Shown: positions 17,048 to 24,966 of the stretch, one piece after another
Position numbering within the stretch: position 1 is the first letter of the stretch
Layout of the letters: the number at the start of each line of letters is the position of its first letter
NCBI RefSeq assembly: GCF_003334385.1
Contig: NZ_QOWN01000049.1
Direction: 5' to 3' (one strand)
Length of the DNA stretch: 33,115 nucleotides
Origin: Escherichia coli
GTDB lineage: Bacteria > Pseudomonadota > Gammaproteobacteria > Enterobacterales > Enterobacteriaceae
Notes under the pieces: model-generated
Database searches by the model: none
Told to the model about the DNA's origin: nothing
What the model saw: the letters and a program-made list of their open reading frames with translations, nothing else
Position numbers and translations under genes: made by a program

Positions 17048-17601
17048 AGTTCTCACCCGGCAATACACCACTGATTCAGACAGATGATTATCATCACCAC
17101 CCACCCCCAAAAATCGCAAGATAAAAAATGCACAAAAGCGCACGAAATTGCACAATTTTTCTTATGTGTTTCATCCCCATTCAGCCCAGTAACGGCGCTG
17201 GCTGAGGCCGGTTTGCACGGTGCACGAAAAACGAGGCAATTGCAGTGCGCAGGCGACGAGGGAAGGGCGCCCGAATTGAGGGGTGGAAGGCAGGTTGCTT
17301 TATTTGGGGTCGTATTGCGCGTGATACGCACGCAGTGAAGCCGGTTCTGAAAAAACCACACCGAAACAGAGTCAGAAAAACAGGCCGCCAGAATGCGTCT
17401 GGTTGAGTTTTACGGGGTCGGGATTAAATGCGGAAACATCACACCGCAGGCATGACGCGAAAAAGAGAAAAACCACAGCAAAACATAATGTTAAATGTTA
17501 TTGATGAGTTGAGAAGCGAAAGGTGTATTGCGTTGACAGAGCTGGAGAGTCGGGGCATAAATTTTTTATGCCCCGGCGAAGCAGCCGACAAGCGAAGCGC
17601 G

Positions 17602-18645
17602 TCAGCTGGCGCCATCCTGAAGCAGCGAATAGGGATTAAAGCGCATCACTTCAACCCCAAGCCATTCATTGACATGCTTCATCGCTTCCATGACCGGTTG
17701 CAACTCGTTGATGAAAAATACCCTCGCCGCCTTCTCAACGTCACCGAACGCCGCGTTCCCGTCAGGCATTGCCCCCATCAGCTGAGGCGGTACACGGTGA
17801 GCCGCAAGGATATCGTCGCGGGCACTCCCCTTGATGTTAAGGAATTCGTCCTTCGCGGTGATTTGCTGGAACGGCAGTATTTGCACACCATCCTTGCCGC
17901 CACCTGGCGCGTGCAGAAGGATATTGCGGAACGCCCCCTTGCCACGGGATTCCGTGAGTGTTTTCTTGATGGCTTCCACGCTTTCAGCGTTTGCCTGGGC
18001 GGCACCAACATAGACAATGCACCCGGCATGTGAACCGTTGTCATAGTAGAGCTTGCGGAACGTATCCGCTGAGTTCGACAGACTCACCGACAGCAACCCA
18101 CCGATATACTCCGGCATCCCGTAGATTTCCTGGTTGATATCGGGGTTCAGAACGTGGCACACAGCCCCCTTACGGAAAGCAAATTCAGAACCATCATCAT
18201 TGAGGTACCAGTACGTATCGAGATCACTGCCCCGCCGCGTGTATTTCGCCAGCGCAGGACGAAGCGCAATGGGTTCACCGAACTTGTTGCGGCGGACTTC
18301 AAGATAGGCATTACCGAACACGAACCAGTCCAGCGCAAACGCGGAAAACGCCTGGCGGGACAGTAGCGGATGAGGAACAAAGCAGCCGTTCAGGGCATTA
18401 CGCTTAAAATACAGGGCCGACTGGTGCCATGATGCACAACGCGAGGCGCGAGCAATGGCATTCCAGTCCATGGGGGTGTCATAGTAGCGGCCATTATCGG
18501 CGCACGACATGTTATCAAGCAGATCAAGACGGCTTGCTTCATAAGGACCGTCAAACGTGAAAGCACTGAGTGACGGCGCTGATTTCAGTGCATCAGCCAG
18601 TGAGCCCGTGCCGCGCTTTCCGGTGTATTTTTTACGTTTACTCAT
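17602..18645 (-). CDS. Q: Portal protein, P2 gpQ family
   Basis: 347 aa, size and position matching P2 Q; immediately followed on the same strand by the large terminase. Confidence 0.88.
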   Translation of the reverse strand: MSKRKKYTGKRGTGSLADALKSAPSLSAFTFDGPYEASRLDLLDNMSCADNGRYYDTPMDWNAIARASRCASWHQSALYFKRNALNGCFVPHPLLSRQAFSAFALDWFVFGNAYLEVRRNKFGEPIALRPALAKYTRRGSDLDTYWYLNDDGSEFAFRKGAVCHVLNPDINQEIYGMPEYIGGLLSVSLSNSADTFRKLYYDNGSHAGCIVYVGAAQANAESVEAIKKTLTESRGKGAFRNILLHAPGGGKDGVQILPFQQITAKDEFLNIKGSARDDILAAHRVPPQLMGAMPDGNAAFGDVEKAARVFFINELQPVMEAMKHVNEWLGVEVMRFNPYSLLQDGAS

Positions 18646-18650
18646 TGTGT

Positions 18651-20384
18651 TCAGAACTCCATTGCAAAGCCACGATTATCCTCACGCTCTGCGCCGATTG
18701 GCTCATTGATAACAGCAAGCATGGTTGCCCAGGCGAGATCACCATGACTGACACCGCGTGAGCGGTCAGTGTCATAGGTGATATAGCCGCCGGGCGTCTG
18801 TATTTTTCGCACCGATGCAAAGGCCTGTACCAGGTCGCGCTCGCTGCGGTCATACTCCCAGCGTCCGGCACGGACCACCTGAAGCATCTTCATGACCAGC
18901 GCCCGCTTTGAAGCGATATTAAAGTTATACGGAACAGCCAGGGGGAAGAATTTTTTCACTATCTGATAAACCCCTTCCCCGTTCCCGCCGGTGACATCAA
19001 TCCCGATATGCTTCACATTGTATTTTTGGGTGTACTCCTCAATCAGGGCGGCCTGCTGTTCAAACTCCATGCCCTGAACCCTGACGGTTTCCACCGTACG
19101 AAAACGCCCACCGGCAACAAGGGGTGGCACGCACACCGACAGCGCCCCGCAGTCCCCCTTCCCGCTGCTGCCGTTGGCGTCATACCCGAGCCAGACTTCC
19201 CTCACCCCCATAGGGCGGACAGCAAAAGGCTTCCAGTCCGGCCATTCGTCATAGCCATCAACACCGCACCCGACGAGCGTATTCAGACTGAAGGCTGCCT
19301 CACCATCACGGACAAATTCGCACATGTACAGATTGCGAAATTCACTTTCTGTATTTTCGCCGCGAATATCATCAATACTGGTGAACTGCCATCCGTTAGC
19401 GACAGCATCCTCAATGGTGACAATCTGCCGCCACGTTTTGTCGGGAAAGAGCACGCCCCTCTTCAGGTGAGCATGTGAAACATCAAACTCACTGCGTTTT
19501 GAGCGTGGCTGTTCGCTGTTCCAGCGGTCCCCCGTCCAGAACTGATACGCCTCATGCATTTCCCCCGACGGCGTCGAGAAGTAAGTGCGCGTAAGCCCTT
19601 CCAGGGTCGCCATTGCCCCGGCAACCTTCCTGAGGTTCACAAAGTTACTGACCCAGAAAAATTCGTCGAATTTAAGATGACCGGTATAGGACTGCGCGGT
19701 GGCAGCTGACGTACCGAGGAAGTGCAGCTCCGCGCCGTTGGACAGCACGATCTTGTCGCCCCCTTTCAGCTCAACATCCACTTCCAGCGCCGCCTGCTGA
19801 ATAAAATGCTTGAACTGATACGCCTGACGACGGGAGGCGGACAAAAATATCTGGTTGCGCTGATACCCGGCGGAGACGTCATCACGCAGTGCATCAAGGA
19901 GCGCCTCGCGCGCAAAATACCAGGTCGCACCAATCTGACGCGACTTCAGGATCATACGGTTGCGGTGGTGACGGTTTTCGTACCATTCACGTTGATGCCA
20001 CGCCAGCGTCGGGAGGATTTTTTCACGAAGCGCGACAATCTGTTCTTCGGTGAAGTGATTTTTCAGTCTGCGTTTACGGGGCTTTTTACCGGAAACGGCC
20101 TGTTCTCCCTGACCGTCATTCAGTTTTTTCAGCTGGCGCGTGAGAAGGTCAATTTCCTTAAAATCGCTGCCGCTTTTCTCTGTTTTTGTGGTGAGCTGGA
20201 TCAGGCGCGCATCAATGGACTGGGTGACCCGCTGGATCGGAGGTGTGGCATCCCACTCATCGCGTTTTTTCCATGAGTAAATCGTGTTCTGGCTGATCCC
20301 CATCAGTTGCGAGATTTCCGCAGGTGTGTACCCTTGCCAGTAAAGTTGTCTTGCCCTTATGCGGACAAATGCATCCTGAATCAT
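18651..20384 (-). CDS. P: Terminase large (ATPase) subunit, P2 gpP family
   Basis: N-terminal HTH-like segment (YTPAEISQLMGISQNTIYSWKKRDEWD) and size matching P2 P; ATG 20384 has an aggggg RBS; the in-frame ATG at 20429 (592 aa) is the alternative. Confidence 0.88.
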   Translation of the reverse strand: MIQDAFVRIRARQLYWQGYTPAEISQLMGISQNTIYSWKKRDEWDATPPIQRVTQSIDARLIQLTTKTEKSGSDFKEIDLLTRQLKKLNDGQGEQAVSGKKPRKRRLKNHFTEEQIVALREKILPTLAWHQREWYENRHHRNRMILKSRQIGATWYFAREALLDALRDDVSAGYQRNQIFLSASRRQAYQFKHFIQQAALEVDVELKGGDKIVLSNGAELHFLGTSAATAQSYTGHLKFDEFFWVSNFVNLRKVAGAMATLEGLTRTYFSTPSGEMHEAYQFWTGDRWNSEQPRSKRSEFDVSHAHLKRGVLFPDKTWRQIVTIEDAVANGWQFTSIDDIRGENTESEFRNLYMCEFVRDGEAAFSLNTLVGCGVDGYDEWPDWKPFAVRPMGVREVWLGYDANGSSGKGDCGALSVCVPPLVAGGRFRTVETVRVQGMEFEQQAALIEEYTQKYNVKHIGIDVTGGNGEGVYQIVKKFFPLAVPYNFNIASKRALVMKMLQVVRAGRWEYDRSERDLVQAFASVRKIQTPGGYITYDTDRSRGVSHGDLAWATMLAVINEPIGAEREDNRGFAMEF

Positions 20385-20451
20385 TGACGCCCCCTTGCTG
20401 TTTGATCTCAAGAGTAAACGCCCGCGCATTCATCCAGGTATCCGGTGCCAT

Positions 20452-20469
20452 TGTCGCCACGCTCTTACA
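20452..20469. promoter_or_regulatory. Late-promoter activator site (TGT-N12-ACA dyad) in the divergent P/O region
   Basis: tgtcgccacgctcttaca in the 112-157 bp P-O intergenic region; P2 late promoters carry a TGT-N12-ACA element near -55 recognised by Ogr/Delta-type activators (established knowledge); spacing fits a start site ~27 nt before O. Confidence 0.5.
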
Positions 20470-20541: not shown

Positions 20542-21378
20542 ATGGCAAGTAAAAACGCGCCAGTACGGAAAAAATTCCGCGTCGCCGTCTCGGGCACCAC
20601 CATCGACGGGCGTGAGATTTCGGGGCTGATGTTGCGTCAGGCCGCTGAGAATTACGACCCGGAAGTGTGGGGGTCACGGGTGAACGTGGAGCACATGCTT
20701 TCACGTATGCCATCCAGTGAATTCAGTGCCGTGGGCGATGTGATTTCACTGTCCACCGAAGAAATCACGGAAGGCAAGCTGGCCGGTCGCACCGCACTGT
20801 ATGCCGAAATAGAGCCAACCCACCGTATGACGGAGATGTTGCGAGACGGCAAGAAAATCTACTCAAGCATTGAGCTTGAACCCAACATTGATGCCGTTGG
20901 CGGCCCTTACGTAATTGGCCTGGCAATGACCGATACCCCGGCAAGTCTCGGCACTGAACGACTGAAGTTTGCCGCCCAGCAGCGCGCCAGCATCATGCAG
21001 TTCAACAGCCGCAGCGGTGAGCCAGTCATGTTCACCGAATGTATGGAAGCGGAACTCGCGGCCTCCGTACAGGACAGCACCGAAGAAAGCCAGAAATGGT
21101 TTTCGCGCGTCATGGCGCTCATCAGTAAAACCCGTGACACGGACAGCGAGCAGTTCGCTCACGTGCGCGAAGCCGTCGAGAGCATTGCCACGGAACAGGC
21201 CGGCCTTCTGGATCGCTTCCATGCGATGGAAGAGCAACAGCGCAGTGATAAGGCATCACTGGAAACCCTGACCCGCGAACTGACTGAACTGAAGGCGCAG
21301 CTGAAAACCGAAGATGCAGACAAGGAACAGCGCTTTGCTTCAACCGGTGGCAACAGCCACGCCCTGGCTGATTTTTAA
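20542..21378 (+). CDS. O: Capsid scaffolding protein, P2 gpO family
   Basis: 278 aa; position between terminase and major capsid; acidic coiled-coil-like C-terminus; ggggattt RBS. Confidence 0.88.
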   Translation: MASKNAPVRKKFRVAVSGTTIDGREISGLMLRQAAENYDPEVWGSRVNVEHMLSRMPSSEFSAVGDVISLSTEEITEGKLAGRTALYAEIEPTHRMTEMLRDGKKIYSSIELEPNIDAVGGPYVIGLAMTDTPASLGTERLKFAAQQRASIMQFNSRSGEPVMFTECMEAELAASVQDSTEESQKWFSRVMALISKTRDTDSEQFAHVREAVESIATEQAGLLDRFHAMEEQQRSDKASLETLTRELTELKAQLKTEDADKEQRFASTGGNSHALADF

Positions 21379-22496: not shown

Positions 22497-22516
22497 GGCG
22501 GGCACATGTGCCCGCC
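22497..22516 (+). terminator. Perfect 20-bp GC-rich palindrome downstream of the capsid gene (hairpin / attenuator candidate)
   Basis: ggcgggcacatgtgcccgcc is its own reverse complement, 9 nt after the N stop; no strong T-tract follows, so it may be a partial terminator or processing element. Confidence 0.35.
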
Positions 22517-22537
22517 GGTTAATCAGGAGTCGAATAC

Positions 22538-23347
22538 ATGCTGACACCGGCACAACGATACCTTCAGCGCGTGATGGCGCATCATCGGGCTGATCCATTC
22601 AGTCGCGAAGAGCAGCGAACACGAACGGCACATGAACAGGTTCTTCACCAGTTACGCCTCGCCCAGTTGCAGCTGAAGGGCGTGCAGTCGAACATCGCGA
22701 AAGCGGAGCTGAAGAAGCACCTGATACCGAATTTTGAAGGCTGGATAGACGGCACGCTGGCAGGCGACAGCGGACGCCAGGACGAAGTCATTACCACCAT
22801 GATGGTGTGGGCAATTGACTGCCGGGATTATCCGCTGGCACTGCGTATCGGTGAGTACGTCATTCGTCACCGGCTGGCACTGCCGGACAACTTCGGGCGC
22901 GATTCGGCGACCGTGCTCACCGAAGAAATTGCCGAAGTTGTGCTGACAGAAGCCGCCACCAACAGCGAAACCGACTTATCCGGCTATATCCGTATGCTGG
23001 ACGAGCTGGATGCACTGGTTCACGACCAGGACATGCCGGATCAGGTTCGTGCAAAACTACATAAGGCGCGGGCATTTTCACGGCGCGCATCAGGCAGTAC
23101 GGAAGACATGACTGTGTCACTTGGTCTGCTGCGTGAAGCTATGCGCATCAATCCGGCAGCAGGCGTGAAGCGTGAAATCGCCACGCTGGCCAGAAAGGTA
23201 TCAAAGGTTCAGCCGGAACCGGAAAAACCGGCAGAAGAGAAAAGTAAATCGAAAGCAACATCAGGGCGCAAAAAGCCGACTACAAAAGCGACGGCCAGAA
23301 AAGCCACGAAAAAAACCGCCGCAAAACCGTCGCGCAAGGCGACCTGA
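22538..23347 (+). CDS. M: Terminase small (endonuclease) subunit, P2 gpM family, with Lys/Ala/Thr-rich C-terminal tail
   Basis: Position and ~245-aa core consistent with P2 M; caggag RBS; C-terminal ~50 aa are low-complexity basic (KSKSKATSGRKKPTTKATARKATKKTAAKPSRKAT). Confidence 0.8.
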   Translation: MLTPAQRYLQRVMAHHRADPFSREEQRTRTAHEQVLHQLRLAQLQLKGVQSNIAKAELKKHLIPNFEGWIDGTLAGDSGRQDEVITTMMVWAIDCRDYPLALRIGEYVIRHRLALPDNFGRDSATVLTEEIAEVVLTEAATNSETDLSGYIRMLDELDALVHDQDMPDQVRAKLHKARAFSRRASGSTEDMTVSLGLLREAMRINPAAGVKREIATLARKVSKVQPEPEKPAEEKSKSKATSGRKKPTTKATARKATKKTAAKPSRKAT

Positions 23348-23455
23348 TAACACCGGACCCGACCTCGTCGGCAGGCGGCGCGACCGGTGATCTGATCGCT
23401 GACTCCCGGTCATTTTCACCGGTCGCCCACCGCCTGATCTACAGGAGAAGACATC

Positions 23456-23950
23456 ATGAGCATGGTAGCCAGACCCCGTGTGAACGACGCCACGGATGAC
23501 ACGACAGACACCGACGACGGAGAAGCGCGCATCAGTACAGACGCGTTCTGGCCGGATATCGTGCTGAAAGAGCTGCGCCTTGCCATGCGCATTCCCGGGC
23601 GCACCACCACGTCACGTCTGCTGCATTCGGCCACCGAAGCTGTGGCACACGTAACGGCAGAGCTTGACACCTGGAAACAGAAACAGGAGGCGGCGGGACG
23701 GTCGACACTGGCGGACGTTCCGGCAGCACACATCAACGGTGAGAGCGTGAACGTGCACCGGTATCGACGCGCGGTGTATGCACTGACCCGCGCGGGCGTT
23801 CTTGAGCGTTCGCGGGATGTGGACACCACCGACAAAGGTGATCGCCGGGCCGATGCGCTGGACATGCAGATTGAAGATATGTGGCGCGATGCACGCTGGG
23901 CAATATCCGATATTCGCGGCGTCAGACGGATTTATGCGGAGCTGATTTAA
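23456..23950 (+). CDS. L: Head completion/stabilisation protein, P2 gpL family
   Basis: 164 aa at the gpL position; ggaga RBS; stop overlaps the X start. Confidence 0.8.
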   Translation: MSMVARPRVNDATDDTTDTDDGEARISTDAFWPDIVLKELRLAMRIPGRTTTSRLLHSATEAVAHVTAELDTWKQKQEAAGRSTLADVPAAHINGESVNVHRYRRAVYALTRAGVLERSRDVDTTDKGDRRADALDMQIEDMWRDARWAISDIRGVRRIYAELI

Positions 23951-24150
23951 TGAAGGTAACCGCGCATGACGGCGACACCGTTGACTTACTCTGCCAGCGT
24001 CATTACGGCATGACAAAGGGCGTGACAGAGCGCGTTCTGGCTGCCAATCCGGGGCTGAGTAACACGGTATTCCTCACTGCCGGGCAGGAAGTTGAATTAC
24101 CGGAAATCACACAGGAAAAACAGCGCGAAACCGTTCAGTTGTGGGATTGA
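23950..24150 (+). CDS. X: Tail protein X (LysM-like), P2 gpX family
   Basis: 66 aa (MKVTAHDGDTVDLLCQRHYG...) at the gpX position between L and the holin. Confidence 0.78.
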   Translation: MKVTAHDGDTVDLLCQRHYGMTKGVTERVLAANPGLSNTVFLTAGQEVELPEITQEKQRETVQLWD

Positions 24151-24152
24151 TT

Positions 24153-24443
24153 ATGTTTCAGAGAATTTACGACCACATTACGTTTTTCACATCCGTCATG
24201 GTCACCGGTATAGGGGTTATGACGCTGAGCGAGAAGATGGCGCTGGCAGGACTGATTCTGGGGGCGCTTTCACTGCTGCGCGGATGGATGCACAGAACAC
24301 GTATGGAGCAGGCACAGGAGCGGCGCAATGAGCTTATTGCACGCATTGCCGACCAGATGCAGCACCGACCACTAAAAGGCAGCGAGAAGCGCGCTCTGGA
24401 AGCCCTGAATGCAGACGGGGAATCACATGCCAGGACAGATTAA
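24153..24443 (+). CDS. Y: Holin (two predicted TM helices)
   Basis: 96 aa with hydrophobic segments ITFFTSVMVTGIGVMTL and MALAGLILGALSLL and a charged C-terminus; immediately upstream of the endolysin. Confidence 0.65.
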   Translation: MFQRIYDHITFFTSVMVTGIGVMTLSEKMALAGLILGALSLLRGWMHRTRMEQAQERRNELIARIADQMQHRPLKGSEKRALEALNADGESHARTD

Positions 24444-24966
24444 ACGCTATGCCGTTGCCGCCATCGTGGCGCTGGGTTTTTCGCTGGCCCCCGGGGAGCT
24501 GAGAACCTCACAGGAGGCACAGGAAAAAATTGCCACCTGGGAAGAGTGTCGGGCATTCCCGTACAGGGATATCGCTGGCGTGAAAACAGTGGGTTGTGGC
24601 TCAACGGGAAACGTCCCCGACCGCCACCATACCAAACAGGAAGTTGCCGGTCGATGGGTGAACGATTTACGACGGGCGGAGAACTGCATCAATCAGAATT
24701 TCAATGGCCGCGACATGCCACAGCGCCACTTTGAGGCAATGACGGATGCTGCCTTTAATCTGGGGTGCAAAGGCCTGATGTGGTTTAAGGGGCGTGACGG
24801 GAGGATGCACAGAACAACCATCTGGAAGTTCGCTCAGGGAAAGAACTGGAGCGCAATGTGCGGCAGGCTGACGGATTTTGTGAACAGCGGCGGACGCTAT
24901 TCACAGGGGCTGTTTAACCGGCGCAATGACTTCAGGAACTGGTGTATGAACGGAGTGAAGCAATGA
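24409..24966 (+). CDS. K: SAR endolysin (GH24 T4-type lysozyme domain with N-terminal signal-anchor-release segment)
   Basis: N-terminal weakly hydrophobic YAVAAIVALGFSLA followed by a catalytic E-x8-D-x5-T pattern (EECRAFPYRDIAGVKT); the alternative start ATG 24427 has the better RBS. Confidence 0.82.
   Translation: MQTGNHMPGQIKRYAVAAIVALGFSLAPGELRTSQEAQEKIATWEECRAFPYRDIAGVKTVGCGSTGNVPDRHHTKQEVAGRWVNDLRRAENCINQNFNGRDMPQRHFEAMTDAAFNLGCKGLMWFKGRDGRMHRTTIWKFAQGKNWSAMCGRLTDFVNSGGRYSQGLFNRRNDFRNWCMNGVKQ

Follow-up and report, generated by a model that had tools for sequence, protein, structure and literature searches.

We describe a structured element that very probably acts at the RNA level and is conserved between genes M and L of a P2-type (Peduoviridae) prophage of Escherichia coli. 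The prophage is contained in the 33,115 nucleotide (nt) stretch of contig NZ_QOWN01000049.1 that was analysed, which we refer to as the window. Genes M (small terminase subunit) and L (head completion) both lie on the plus strand and are separated by a spacer of 108 nt, positions 23348-23455, which is the largest non-coding gap of the operon according to the list of open reading frames (ORFs) of the window. Comparison of related sequences indicates that the element comprises about 90 nt of the late polycistronic mRNA, that it is formed by the sense strand and that it fills the spacer between the stop codon of M and the ribosome-binding site of L. The pairing, together with a few unpaired bases, is under purifying selection in a transcript that continues through the element.

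The original prediction drew attention to the sequences GCGACCGGTGA (23380-23390) and TCACCGGTCGC (23416-23426), which are indeed exact reverse complements of 11 nt separated by 25 nt. The 11-mer repeat by itself was rejected as a significant feature: perfect 11-nt inverted repeats with a loop of 3-60 nt occur 0.57 times per dinucleotide-shuffled window, and 70 out of 200 shuffled windows (35%) contained at least one. The element is judged to be real because of its extended fold and its covarying conservation in relatives, and not because of the 11-mer. In the minimum-energy fold, the inverted repeat constitutes the middle helix (P3) of a structure located at 23359-23436. The arms had also been claimed to extend imperfectly, and this is borne out, as a 7-bp lower stem and the 11-bp P3 together form 18 bp across an asymmetric 1 x 3 internal loop (C23379 versus CCA at 23427-23429). 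A 6-bp apical helix (23393-23398 with 23407-23412) closes the top of the element, which is thus predicted to be an interrupted duplex of 7 + 11 + 6 bp (~24 bp) with 1x3 and 2x3 internal loops. The nested hairpin proposed previously, ccggt (23406-23410) with accgg (23418-23422), had to be abandoned: it uses bases of the 3' arm and therefore competes with the main stem, it is neither part of the minimum-energy structure nor conserved, and both the energy calculation and the comparison support the apical helix instead. Folded as RNA, the 108-nt gap reaches -48.6 kcal/mol (z-score, z = -4.46), and none of 200 dinucleotide shuffles was equally stable. A stable fold is likewise predicted for the plus strand as DNA (-27.0 kcal/mol, z = -4.56). 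The parts of the element and its flanking genes are as follows.

22538-23347, plus strand: gene M, terminase small subunit, 269 amino acids (aa); ORF, annotated by RefSeq as 'gpM: phage terminase small subunit' in identical E. coli prophages.
23345-23347, plus strand: stop codon TGA of M.
23359-23371, plus strand: small hairpin P1, CCGAC-CUC-GUCGG, with a C-rich loop; minimum-energy fold and relatives.
23372-23378, plus strand: 5' strand of the lower stem (helix P2), CAGGCGG; pairs with 23430-23436 in the minimum-energy fold, conserved.
23379, plus strand: unpaired C, 5' side of the internal loop; C in 54 out of 54 diverse sequences.
23380-23390, plus strand: 5' arm of P3, GCGACCGGUGA, the left repeat of the original prediction; fold and covariation.
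23393-23412, plus strand: apical hairpin, UGAUCG - 8-nt loop - CGGUCA; minimum-energy fold and covariation of two alignable pairs.
23416-23426, plus strand: 3' arm of P3, UCACCGGUCGC, the right repeat of the original prediction; fold and covariation.
23427-23429, plus strand: unpaired CCA, 3' side of the internal loop; conserved in 54 sequences.
23430-23436, plus strand: 3' strand of the lower stem, CCGCCUG (CCGCCTG as DNA); fold and conservation.
23437-23455, plus strand: single-stranded tail AUCUACAGGAGAAGACAUC with the Shine-Dalgarno sequence AGGAG of L (23443-23447); unpaired in the minimum-energy fold.
23456-23950, plus strand: gene L, head completion / head-tail adaptor protein, 164 aa; ORF, annotation of identical prophages and homology to P2 gpL.

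Strong support for the element was obtained from phage P2 itself and from its relatives. The M-L gap of phage P2 has the same architecture, in which a small hairpin is followed by CAGGGCGG-C-ACGCCGG...CCGGCGT-CCA-CCGCCCG, and folds with -47.6 kcal/mol (z = -4.69). A blastn search of 50,697 phage records using 1 kb around the site as query returned distant relatives only. For one group of Klebsiella phages the hairpin (window 23371-23449, 81-84% identity) was the sole DNA that could be aligned, which indicates that the element is better conserved than the genes flanking it. The loci compared comprised 80 loci from IMG/VR around close relatives of gpL, 16 GenBank phages spanning the family, and a further 129 loci around phiCTX-, RSA1- and Mannheimia-type gpL that were found with single proteins. 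A covariance model, built from the plus strand of 24 enterobacterial sequences and mis-specifying hairpin P1, matched the sense strand of the M-L gap in P2, Xuanwuvirus, Reginaelenavirus, Fels-2, Gegevirus and Cartapus, in Eganvirus (BIS20, 186) and a Yersinia phage, and in Ralstonia phage RSA1, Burkholderia phage Mana and a Mannheimia phage; weak matches were obtained for phiCTX (Pseudomonas) and Smp131 (Stenotrophomonas). Combined with direct inspection, the model revealed the same architecture in the M-L gap of 13 further genera. In a search that made no use of the model, a motif consisting of the lower stem, C, the upper stem, (C/U)CA and the 3' strand of the lower stem recovered the core in 116 distinct sequences. 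Thirteen loci failed this search; about ten of them are truncated or contain the core with a mismatch or small change, and in the remainder the core cannot be recognised or the start of L is mis-set. In all relatives examined the element sits on the sense strand between the small-terminase stop and the head-completion start. Only one of the lineages sampled, the Vibrio K139-type phages, has a different hairpin in the M-L gap. Vibrio phage VPUSM 8 (locus L097, 559-664), of this type, contains a long hairpin (-34.9 kcal/mol) without the GG-C / CCA-CC core and retains the family tail ACCUAUUUAGAGAG ahead of the L start; this hairpin may mark the boundary of the family.

The element is also fixed in its location within genomes. 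It is present in 35 out of 5,426 E. coli genomes, in prophages only, at one or two places each, and all copies are chromosomal. Identical chromosomal copies have exactly M and L annotated on either side, and for 16 near-identical copies the annotated neighbours are gpM and the head-completion gene. The diverged copies are found in prophages at spots without annotation, and three of them that were inspected lie likewise in the gpM / head-completion gap. The window contains a single copy, and its next-best match to the covariance model scores 7.8 bits. A loose core pattern matched 121 times in IMG/VR: all 52 matches able to form 6 bp or more of P3 are located between M and L homologues, and 64 matches elsewhere form 0-5 bp of P3 and fall in G+C-rich coding DNA.

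The pattern of base changes shows that complementarity is what is retained. RNAalifold predicted 19 pairs for the 24 enterobacterial sequences, 14 of which are supported by compensatory changes. For a broader sample, 54 diverse sequences were aligned in blocks with the variable apex removed. In this alignment, 100% of the cells of the lower stem are paired and four of its six pairs vary on both sides; the values for the first seven pairs of P3 are 97.6% and seven out of seven. Overall, 11 of the 13 core pairs show changes on both sides. The covariation score of 0.573 was reached by none of 500 column shuffles, which gave 0.148, and sliding the 3' partner by 1-3 columns lowered the pairing to 35-52%. 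The sequence of the window fits the core of the family: AGGCGG C GCGACCG ... CGGTCGC CCA CCGCCT. Amid this variation some positions do not change. All 54 sequences agree in the unpaired C, in the last two bases of the CCA bulge and in both G-C pairs that close the lower stem; the first base of the bulge is C in 52 sequences and U otherwise. Across the internal loop, the adjoining pair varies freely (U-A in 19, G-C in 18 and A-U in 17 sequences), and the two pairs after it, C-G and G-C, hardly change. The apical hairpin differs between relatives in sequence and length (apex of 24-44 nt; P3 of 7-13 bp), and two apical pairs that can be aligned covary among the enterobacterial relatives. An extension of M by readthrough or frameshifting was considered and rejected, since the apex varies in length by steps that are not multiples of three.

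The core helices of the 54 sequences contain 21 G-U pairs and a single A-C pair. Since G-U pairs would become mismatches on the opposite strand, it is the sense strand that folds, and the excess of G-U excludes a palindrome in duplex DNA as well as an antisense RNA. The strand scores of the covariance model were discarded as evidence because, with a model made from the plus strand, they are circular; the count of G-U versus A-C pairs replaced them. Taken together, these results support the earlier suggestion of a regulatory structure between M and L in a stronger form, namely as a strand-specific, conserved element with covarying stems. The feature is real and was undervalued, its existence being well supported by comparison; conservation and a stable structure were both clearly found. 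The other suggestion, a packaging-related structure, is not supported, as the G-U bias points to folding of the transcribed strand and not to a site in duplex DNA. The packaging site of P2 (cos) is located left of gene Q, kilobases away from the M-L gap.

Hairpin P1 is probably part of the element. More than 20 different complementary stems were found at its position in relatives (GCGU/ACGC, GCGUG/CGCGC, CUGAC/GUCAG, UCGAC/GUCGA, GCUC/GAGC and others), taking the best hairpin in each relative, and the loops are mostly CCC, ACCC or CCCC. P1 ends 0-5 nt ahead of the lower stem. Counted from the first base of the M stop codon, its start is 6-9 nt away in most relatives, which places it within the footprint of a terminating ribosome; this distance is 14 nt in the window (23345 to 23359). 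A first assignment of P1 columns, based on a MAFFT alignment, was out of register (37.6% paired) and was not used.

Distances on the other side are likewise constrained. Among relatives the lower stem ends 15-24 nt ahead of the AUG of L, and the entire gap mostly measures 96-115 nt. The tail between the lower stem and L has the family consensus ACCUAUUCAG(A/G)G, of which the tail in the window is a variant. This consensus merges into a good Shine-Dalgarno sequence in enterobacterial phages (AUCUACAGGAG in the window). The complementarity between the L start and 16S rRNA has a median of -6.9 kcal/mol in enterobacterial phages, -2.1 kcal/mol in phiCTX-like phages and +0.4 kcal/mol in RSA1-like phages. 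In the RSA1-like and most of the phiCTX-like phages the head-completion gene has no recognisable Shine-Dalgarno sequence and the neighbouring genes have ordinary sites, as judged from RSA1 (L088), Mana (L093), Smp131 (L096), phiCTX (L092) and loci L102-L216. This suggests that initiation at L would be deliberately weak or dependent on its context.

The element is not a conserved intrinsic terminator, nor does it act as one in this phage. It does contain a G+C-rich hairpin (the 18-bp stem plus the apical helix), but the tail in the window contains two U in 8 nt and so has no U-tract, and a consensus scan detected no terminator at the element and no sigma-70-like promoter in the region 22500-24500. 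U-tracts (at least 5 U in 8 nt) are present in 28 out of 113 unique relatives, all of which are enterobacterial except locus L219. The sole TGT-N12-ACA sequence near the head genes is located at 20452-20469 (P_O), and there is none from there to 31463. This dyad, TGTCGCCACGCTCTTACA, lies between gene P on the minus strand (18651-20429) and the divergent gene O on the plus strand (20542-21378), and is the expected binding site of a late activator of the Ogr/B type. Because no other site of this type is found between P_O and 31463, L depends on transcripts that read through the element. Genes L and X, the lysis genes, and R and S have no recognisable late promoter of their own.

We also compared the element with other known classes of sequences. 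In the window, the best overlapping matches to Rfam 15 scored 17-19 bits, compared with gathering thresholds of 39-100; at permissive E-values only sub-threshold microRNA or small RNA noise was obtained for the window and six relatives, and ARAGORN detected no tRNA or transfer-messenger RNA. Mobile repeats such as repetitive extragenic palindromic (REP) sequences, bacterial interspersed mosaic elements or miniature inverted-repeat transposable elements occur in many copies, whereas the element is single-copy in the window and has a fixed locus. It also does not behave as an operator or packaging palindrome, since complementarity and not sequence is conserved, with a strand asymmetry. In two respects the predicted fold does resemble known classes: it has the interrupted duplex of at least ~20 bp with an internal loop that is typical of T7-type RNase III sites, and it shares the stable folding of one DNA strand with single-stranded DNA priming signals. 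The curated records of P2 and 186 leave the M-L gap unannotated, although promoters, activator sites and an attenuator nearby are annotated. A full-text literature search found no description of the element, though older papers or the 2023 catalogue of 10,006 candidate phage RNAs might hold one. We regard the element as a new family within the cis-acting intercistronic mRNA structures.

With respect to its function, we tentatively propose a combined role in cis, in which the element would act after transcription as a barrier to decay or a processing point, as an insulator for ribosomes and as a scaffold for the start of L. The stable hairpin would separate the O-N-M part of the message (scaffold, capsid and small terminase) from the part encoding L, tail and lysis functions. 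At the same time it would uncouple the two genes, by keeping ribosomes that terminate at M from sliding into initiation at L, and it would prevent the start region of L, some 20 nt beyond the base of the hairpin on its downstream side, from pairing. The outcome would be a set ratio between expression of the head genes and that of the genes downstream. Several points weigh against this proposal or the structure on which it is based. The function is deduced from the anatomy of the element alone. A generic barrier or insulator leaves the invariance of the internal loop unexplained; indeed, the invariant internal-loop bases and the C-rich loop of P1, which are kept from Pasteurellaceae to Burkholderiales, point to recognition by a specific factor. 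A stabiliser serving the capsid protein would be expected directly after N and not after M, and genome compaction alone could account for the constant spacing to the stop of M and the start of L. P1 is not more stable than shuffled sequences (mean z = -0.76). The block alignment of 54 sequences was anchored on the motif and hence leans towards structure, even though the anchor required only 4 + 3 pairs. Finally, the covariation is equally compatible with a role of the same strand as single-stranded DNA.

The invariance of the loop bases leads to the main alternative, a regulatory RNA in which recognition rather than stability is essential. According to this explanation, which overlaps with the combined cis-acting role and which we consider possible but rather doubtful, the GG-C / CCA-CC loop, with or without the C-rich loop of P1, would be the recognition site of a conserved factor from the host or the phage. 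Candidates include RNase III acting on the ~24-bp interrupted duplex, RNase P acting on a minihelix of the type 'stem followed by CCA', a translational repressor of L, RNA polymerase (as in a put-like antiterminator) and the ribosome, for which the element could be a reinitiation or 'shunt' device leading from the M stop to an L start that has no Shine-Dalgarno sequence. The invariance of the unpaired C (54/54), of CCA (52-54/54) and of the closing G-C pairs (54/54) next to neighbouring pairs that vary argues for a bound factor, as do the C-rich loops kept on top of more than 20 different P1 stems, the position of P1 within reach of a ribosome terminating at M, and the L genes of beta-proteobacterial phages that have no Shine-Dalgarno sequence. 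There are also precedents, since hairpins with an internal loop serve as single-cut RNase III sites in T7 and the precursors of the C4 RNA of phages P1 and P7 and of the CI RNA of P4 are substrates of RNase P. Several points speak against these candidates. The extreme G+C content of the stems is generally known to disfavour RNase III; the variable apex (24-44 nt) and P3 (7-13 bp) are unlike the substrates of an enzyme that measures helices; the CCA runs straight into the paired CC, unlike the free 3' end of a tRNA-like molecule; and no similarity to Rfam families, tRNA or transfer-messenger RNA was detected. An extended version, which we view with similar reservation, would be a new, family-wide class of cis-regulatory RNA. 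Its invariant internal loop and the C-rich loop of P1 would be read by a conserved cellular machine, such as RNase P, RNase III, the ribosome or RNA polymerase, and the element would be the switch point at which head proteins are balanced against head-completion, tail and lysis proteins. In lineages whose L gene has no Shine-Dalgarno sequence, ribosomes that terminate at M might then be passed over the hairpin and delivered to the start of L.

The remaining explanations are less probable. A leaky intrinsic or Rho-dependent terminator or attenuator, which would lower transcription from L onward relative to O-N-M, is improbable as the function of the family, although relatives with a U-rich tail could plausibly use it in this way. 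In some close relatives a U-rich stretch directly follows the G+C-rich stem: the sequence there is A + U6-8 in Xuanwuvirus-type prophages, and 28 of 113 unique sequences have a U-tract; P2 has U4 on the 3' side of the stem, and its record annotates a putative attenuator in the same operon, within lysC. In addition, the unpaired parts are C-rich, as are Rho-binding sites. On the other hand, the tail in the window, AUCUACAG (GAUCUACA), yielded no call in the terminator scan, and 75% of the unique relatives are without U-tract, including all phiCTX-like, RSA1-like and Mannheimia-like sequences. Where a 'U-run' occurs, it represents local variation of the family tail ACCUAUUCAGAG. Downstream lie essential genes (L, X, lysis, R and S) that have no recognisable late promoter of their own, and a terminator needs neither an invariant internal loop nor a 60-nt stem. 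It is still more improbable that the element functions as single-stranded DNA, with the displaced strand folding during rolling-circle replication to form a priming or assembly signal. The stable fold of the plus strand as DNA agrees with this idea, covariation and a bias of G-T over A-C would be equally expected, P2-type phages are generally known to replicate as rolling circles nicked by the A protein, and the M-L gap offers the most non-coding space in the operon. Yet the element keeps a constant spacing to the stop of M and the ribosome site of L, and its tail merges with the Shine-Dalgarno sequence, which fits an mRNA element better than a DNA signal, whose position would be free. Lagging-strand synthesis of P2 is moreover generally known to use DnaB and DnaG loaded by gpB, and we know of no special signal that it requires. 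Least credible of all, to the extent that we hardly consider it, is a protein site in duplex DNA (packaging, terminase or operator), a REP-like or MITE-like repeat, or chance. The exact 11-bp inverted repeat does adjoin the terminase gene, and a window may well contain one such repeat by chance alone. A duplex site, however, is contradicted by the arms changing freely with complementarity kept, by the 21:1 ratio of G-U over A-C, which would be meaningless for duplex DNA, and by the 25-nt spacer and the asymmetric internal loop. A mobile repeat is contradicted by the single copy in the window, by the restriction of the E. coli copies to prophages (35 genomes) and by the pattern matches elsewhere in IMG/VR, which form no hairpin. 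Chance is ruled out by the conservation across phages whose flanking DNA no longer aligns.

By analogy, the working principle of the element would be closest to that of the stabilising intercistronic hairpins of malE-malF and of the RNase III sites of T7, although it is a member of neither group. The REP hairpins of E. coli malE-malF are intercistronic stabilisers of mRNA. Like the element, they form a very stable G+C-rich stem-loop without U-tract within a polycistronic transcript, downstream of genes whose products are needed in larger amounts; but REP sequences are dispersed in hundreds of copies with a consensus of their own, whereas the element is single-copy, phage-specific and fixed in position, and combines a second small hairpin with internal-loop bases that do not vary. 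The RNase III sites of T7 and T3 are also intergenic hairpins of about two helical turns with an asymmetric internal loop in a phage operon, and their cleavage leaves a protective 3' hairpin on the upstream message. They differ in number (about ten sites versus one here), and the element is far more G+C-rich and has no sequence relationship with them. Intrinsic terminators and attenuators, such as that in P2 lysC, share with it a G+C-rich hairpin in the O operon and, in some relatives, a run of U5-8; the element has no U-tract in this phage and in most lineages, and has a stem of ~60 nt with conserved unpaired bases. Cis-acting RNA elements that modify the transcription complex, namely put of HK022 and nut/boxB of lambda with its flanking rut sites at tR1, resemble the element in having two adjacent hairpins in a nascent phage transcript with conserved unpaired bases, and C-rich single-stranded segments around a hairpin. 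Rho-dependent polarity is generally known to affect the late operons of P2, and this speaks against processive antitermination. The intergenic single-stranded DNA signals of phiX174 and G4 are strand-specific stable hairpins between structural genes of rolling-circle phages as well, but they act on packaged or displaced single-stranded DNA, whereas the element is joined to a stop codon and a ribosome-binding site. Finally, the C4 precursor of phages P1 and P7 and the CI RNA of P4 are temperate-phage hairpins in which the 3' strand is followed by an unpaired CCA. These are small RNAs of immunity regions, whereas the CCA of the element is an internal bulge preceding a further helix in a late mRNA, and the element has no match to the C4 family of Rfam.

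Phages P2 and 186 feature in textbooks as temperate phages, and phages related to them rank with the most common prophages of Proteobacteria. The only sizeable non-coding gap of their main late operon nevertheless carries an RNA structure that has not been annotated, that is better conserved than its neighbouring genes and whose invariant loop is the same from Mannheimia to Burkholderia. If the element indeed controls processing, stability or translation, it would explain how one promoter provides for hundreds of capsid subunits and about a dozen head-completion proteins per virion, and it would constitute a compact, portable part for tuning gene ratios within operons. It can also be used as a sharp sequence marker for head modules of the P2 type, and for correcting gene calls, as at least one RefSeq record has a spurious ORF across it. 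In the record of Burkholderia phage Mana (L093, NC_055863) the 'hypothetical protein' annotated at 553-1086 starts inside M and spans the element, and the true gpL homologue is the unannotated ORF at 665-1147.

The element likely also lies at a recombination joint between the head genes and those downstream. Similarity to P88-type phages in the blastn search starts at query position 462 (approximately window 23361) and runs through L, with M remaining unaligned. The similarity thus begins at the 5' edge of the element, which therefore coincides with a mosaic joint, and the element may serve as a recombination linker between the head module and the modules downstream.

Some additional features were observed in the window. 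Two GATC (Dam) sites lie 5 nt apart at 23389-23397, at the top of the 5' arm of P3. GAUC at this position is common in many enterobacterial and Pseudomonas-phage relatives and is not found in RSA1-like or Mannheimia-like ones; conservation of GATC in the upper stem, as assessed with a crude anchor, was dropped as a family feature because it is not universal. Upstream of the element, the C-terminus of M (encoded by 23230-23344) is a basic tail rich in lysine, alanine and threonine that ends in …KSKSKATSGRKKPTTKATARKATKKTAAKPSRKAT, and part of it is encoded by an 11-nt tandem repeat, AAAACCGCCGC/AAAACCGTCGC, at 23312-23333. The gpM protein of P2 is without a basic C-terminal tail of this kind. 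Downstream, an ORF of 656 aa (25516-27486) separates the lysis genes from those for tail completion; RefSeq labels the corresponding protein of related prophages as a DUF6645 domain protein, P2 has nothing equivalent at the corresponding position, and it may be a cargo gene. The window contains one other perfect inverted repeat of at least 11 nt with a short loop, CGGGGCATAAA / TTTATGCCCCG at 17551-17575 with a loop of 3 nt. The Q-like (portal) ORF, which is on the minus strand (17602-18645), has its 3' end just before this repeat, a possible terminator close to the prophage's cos end.

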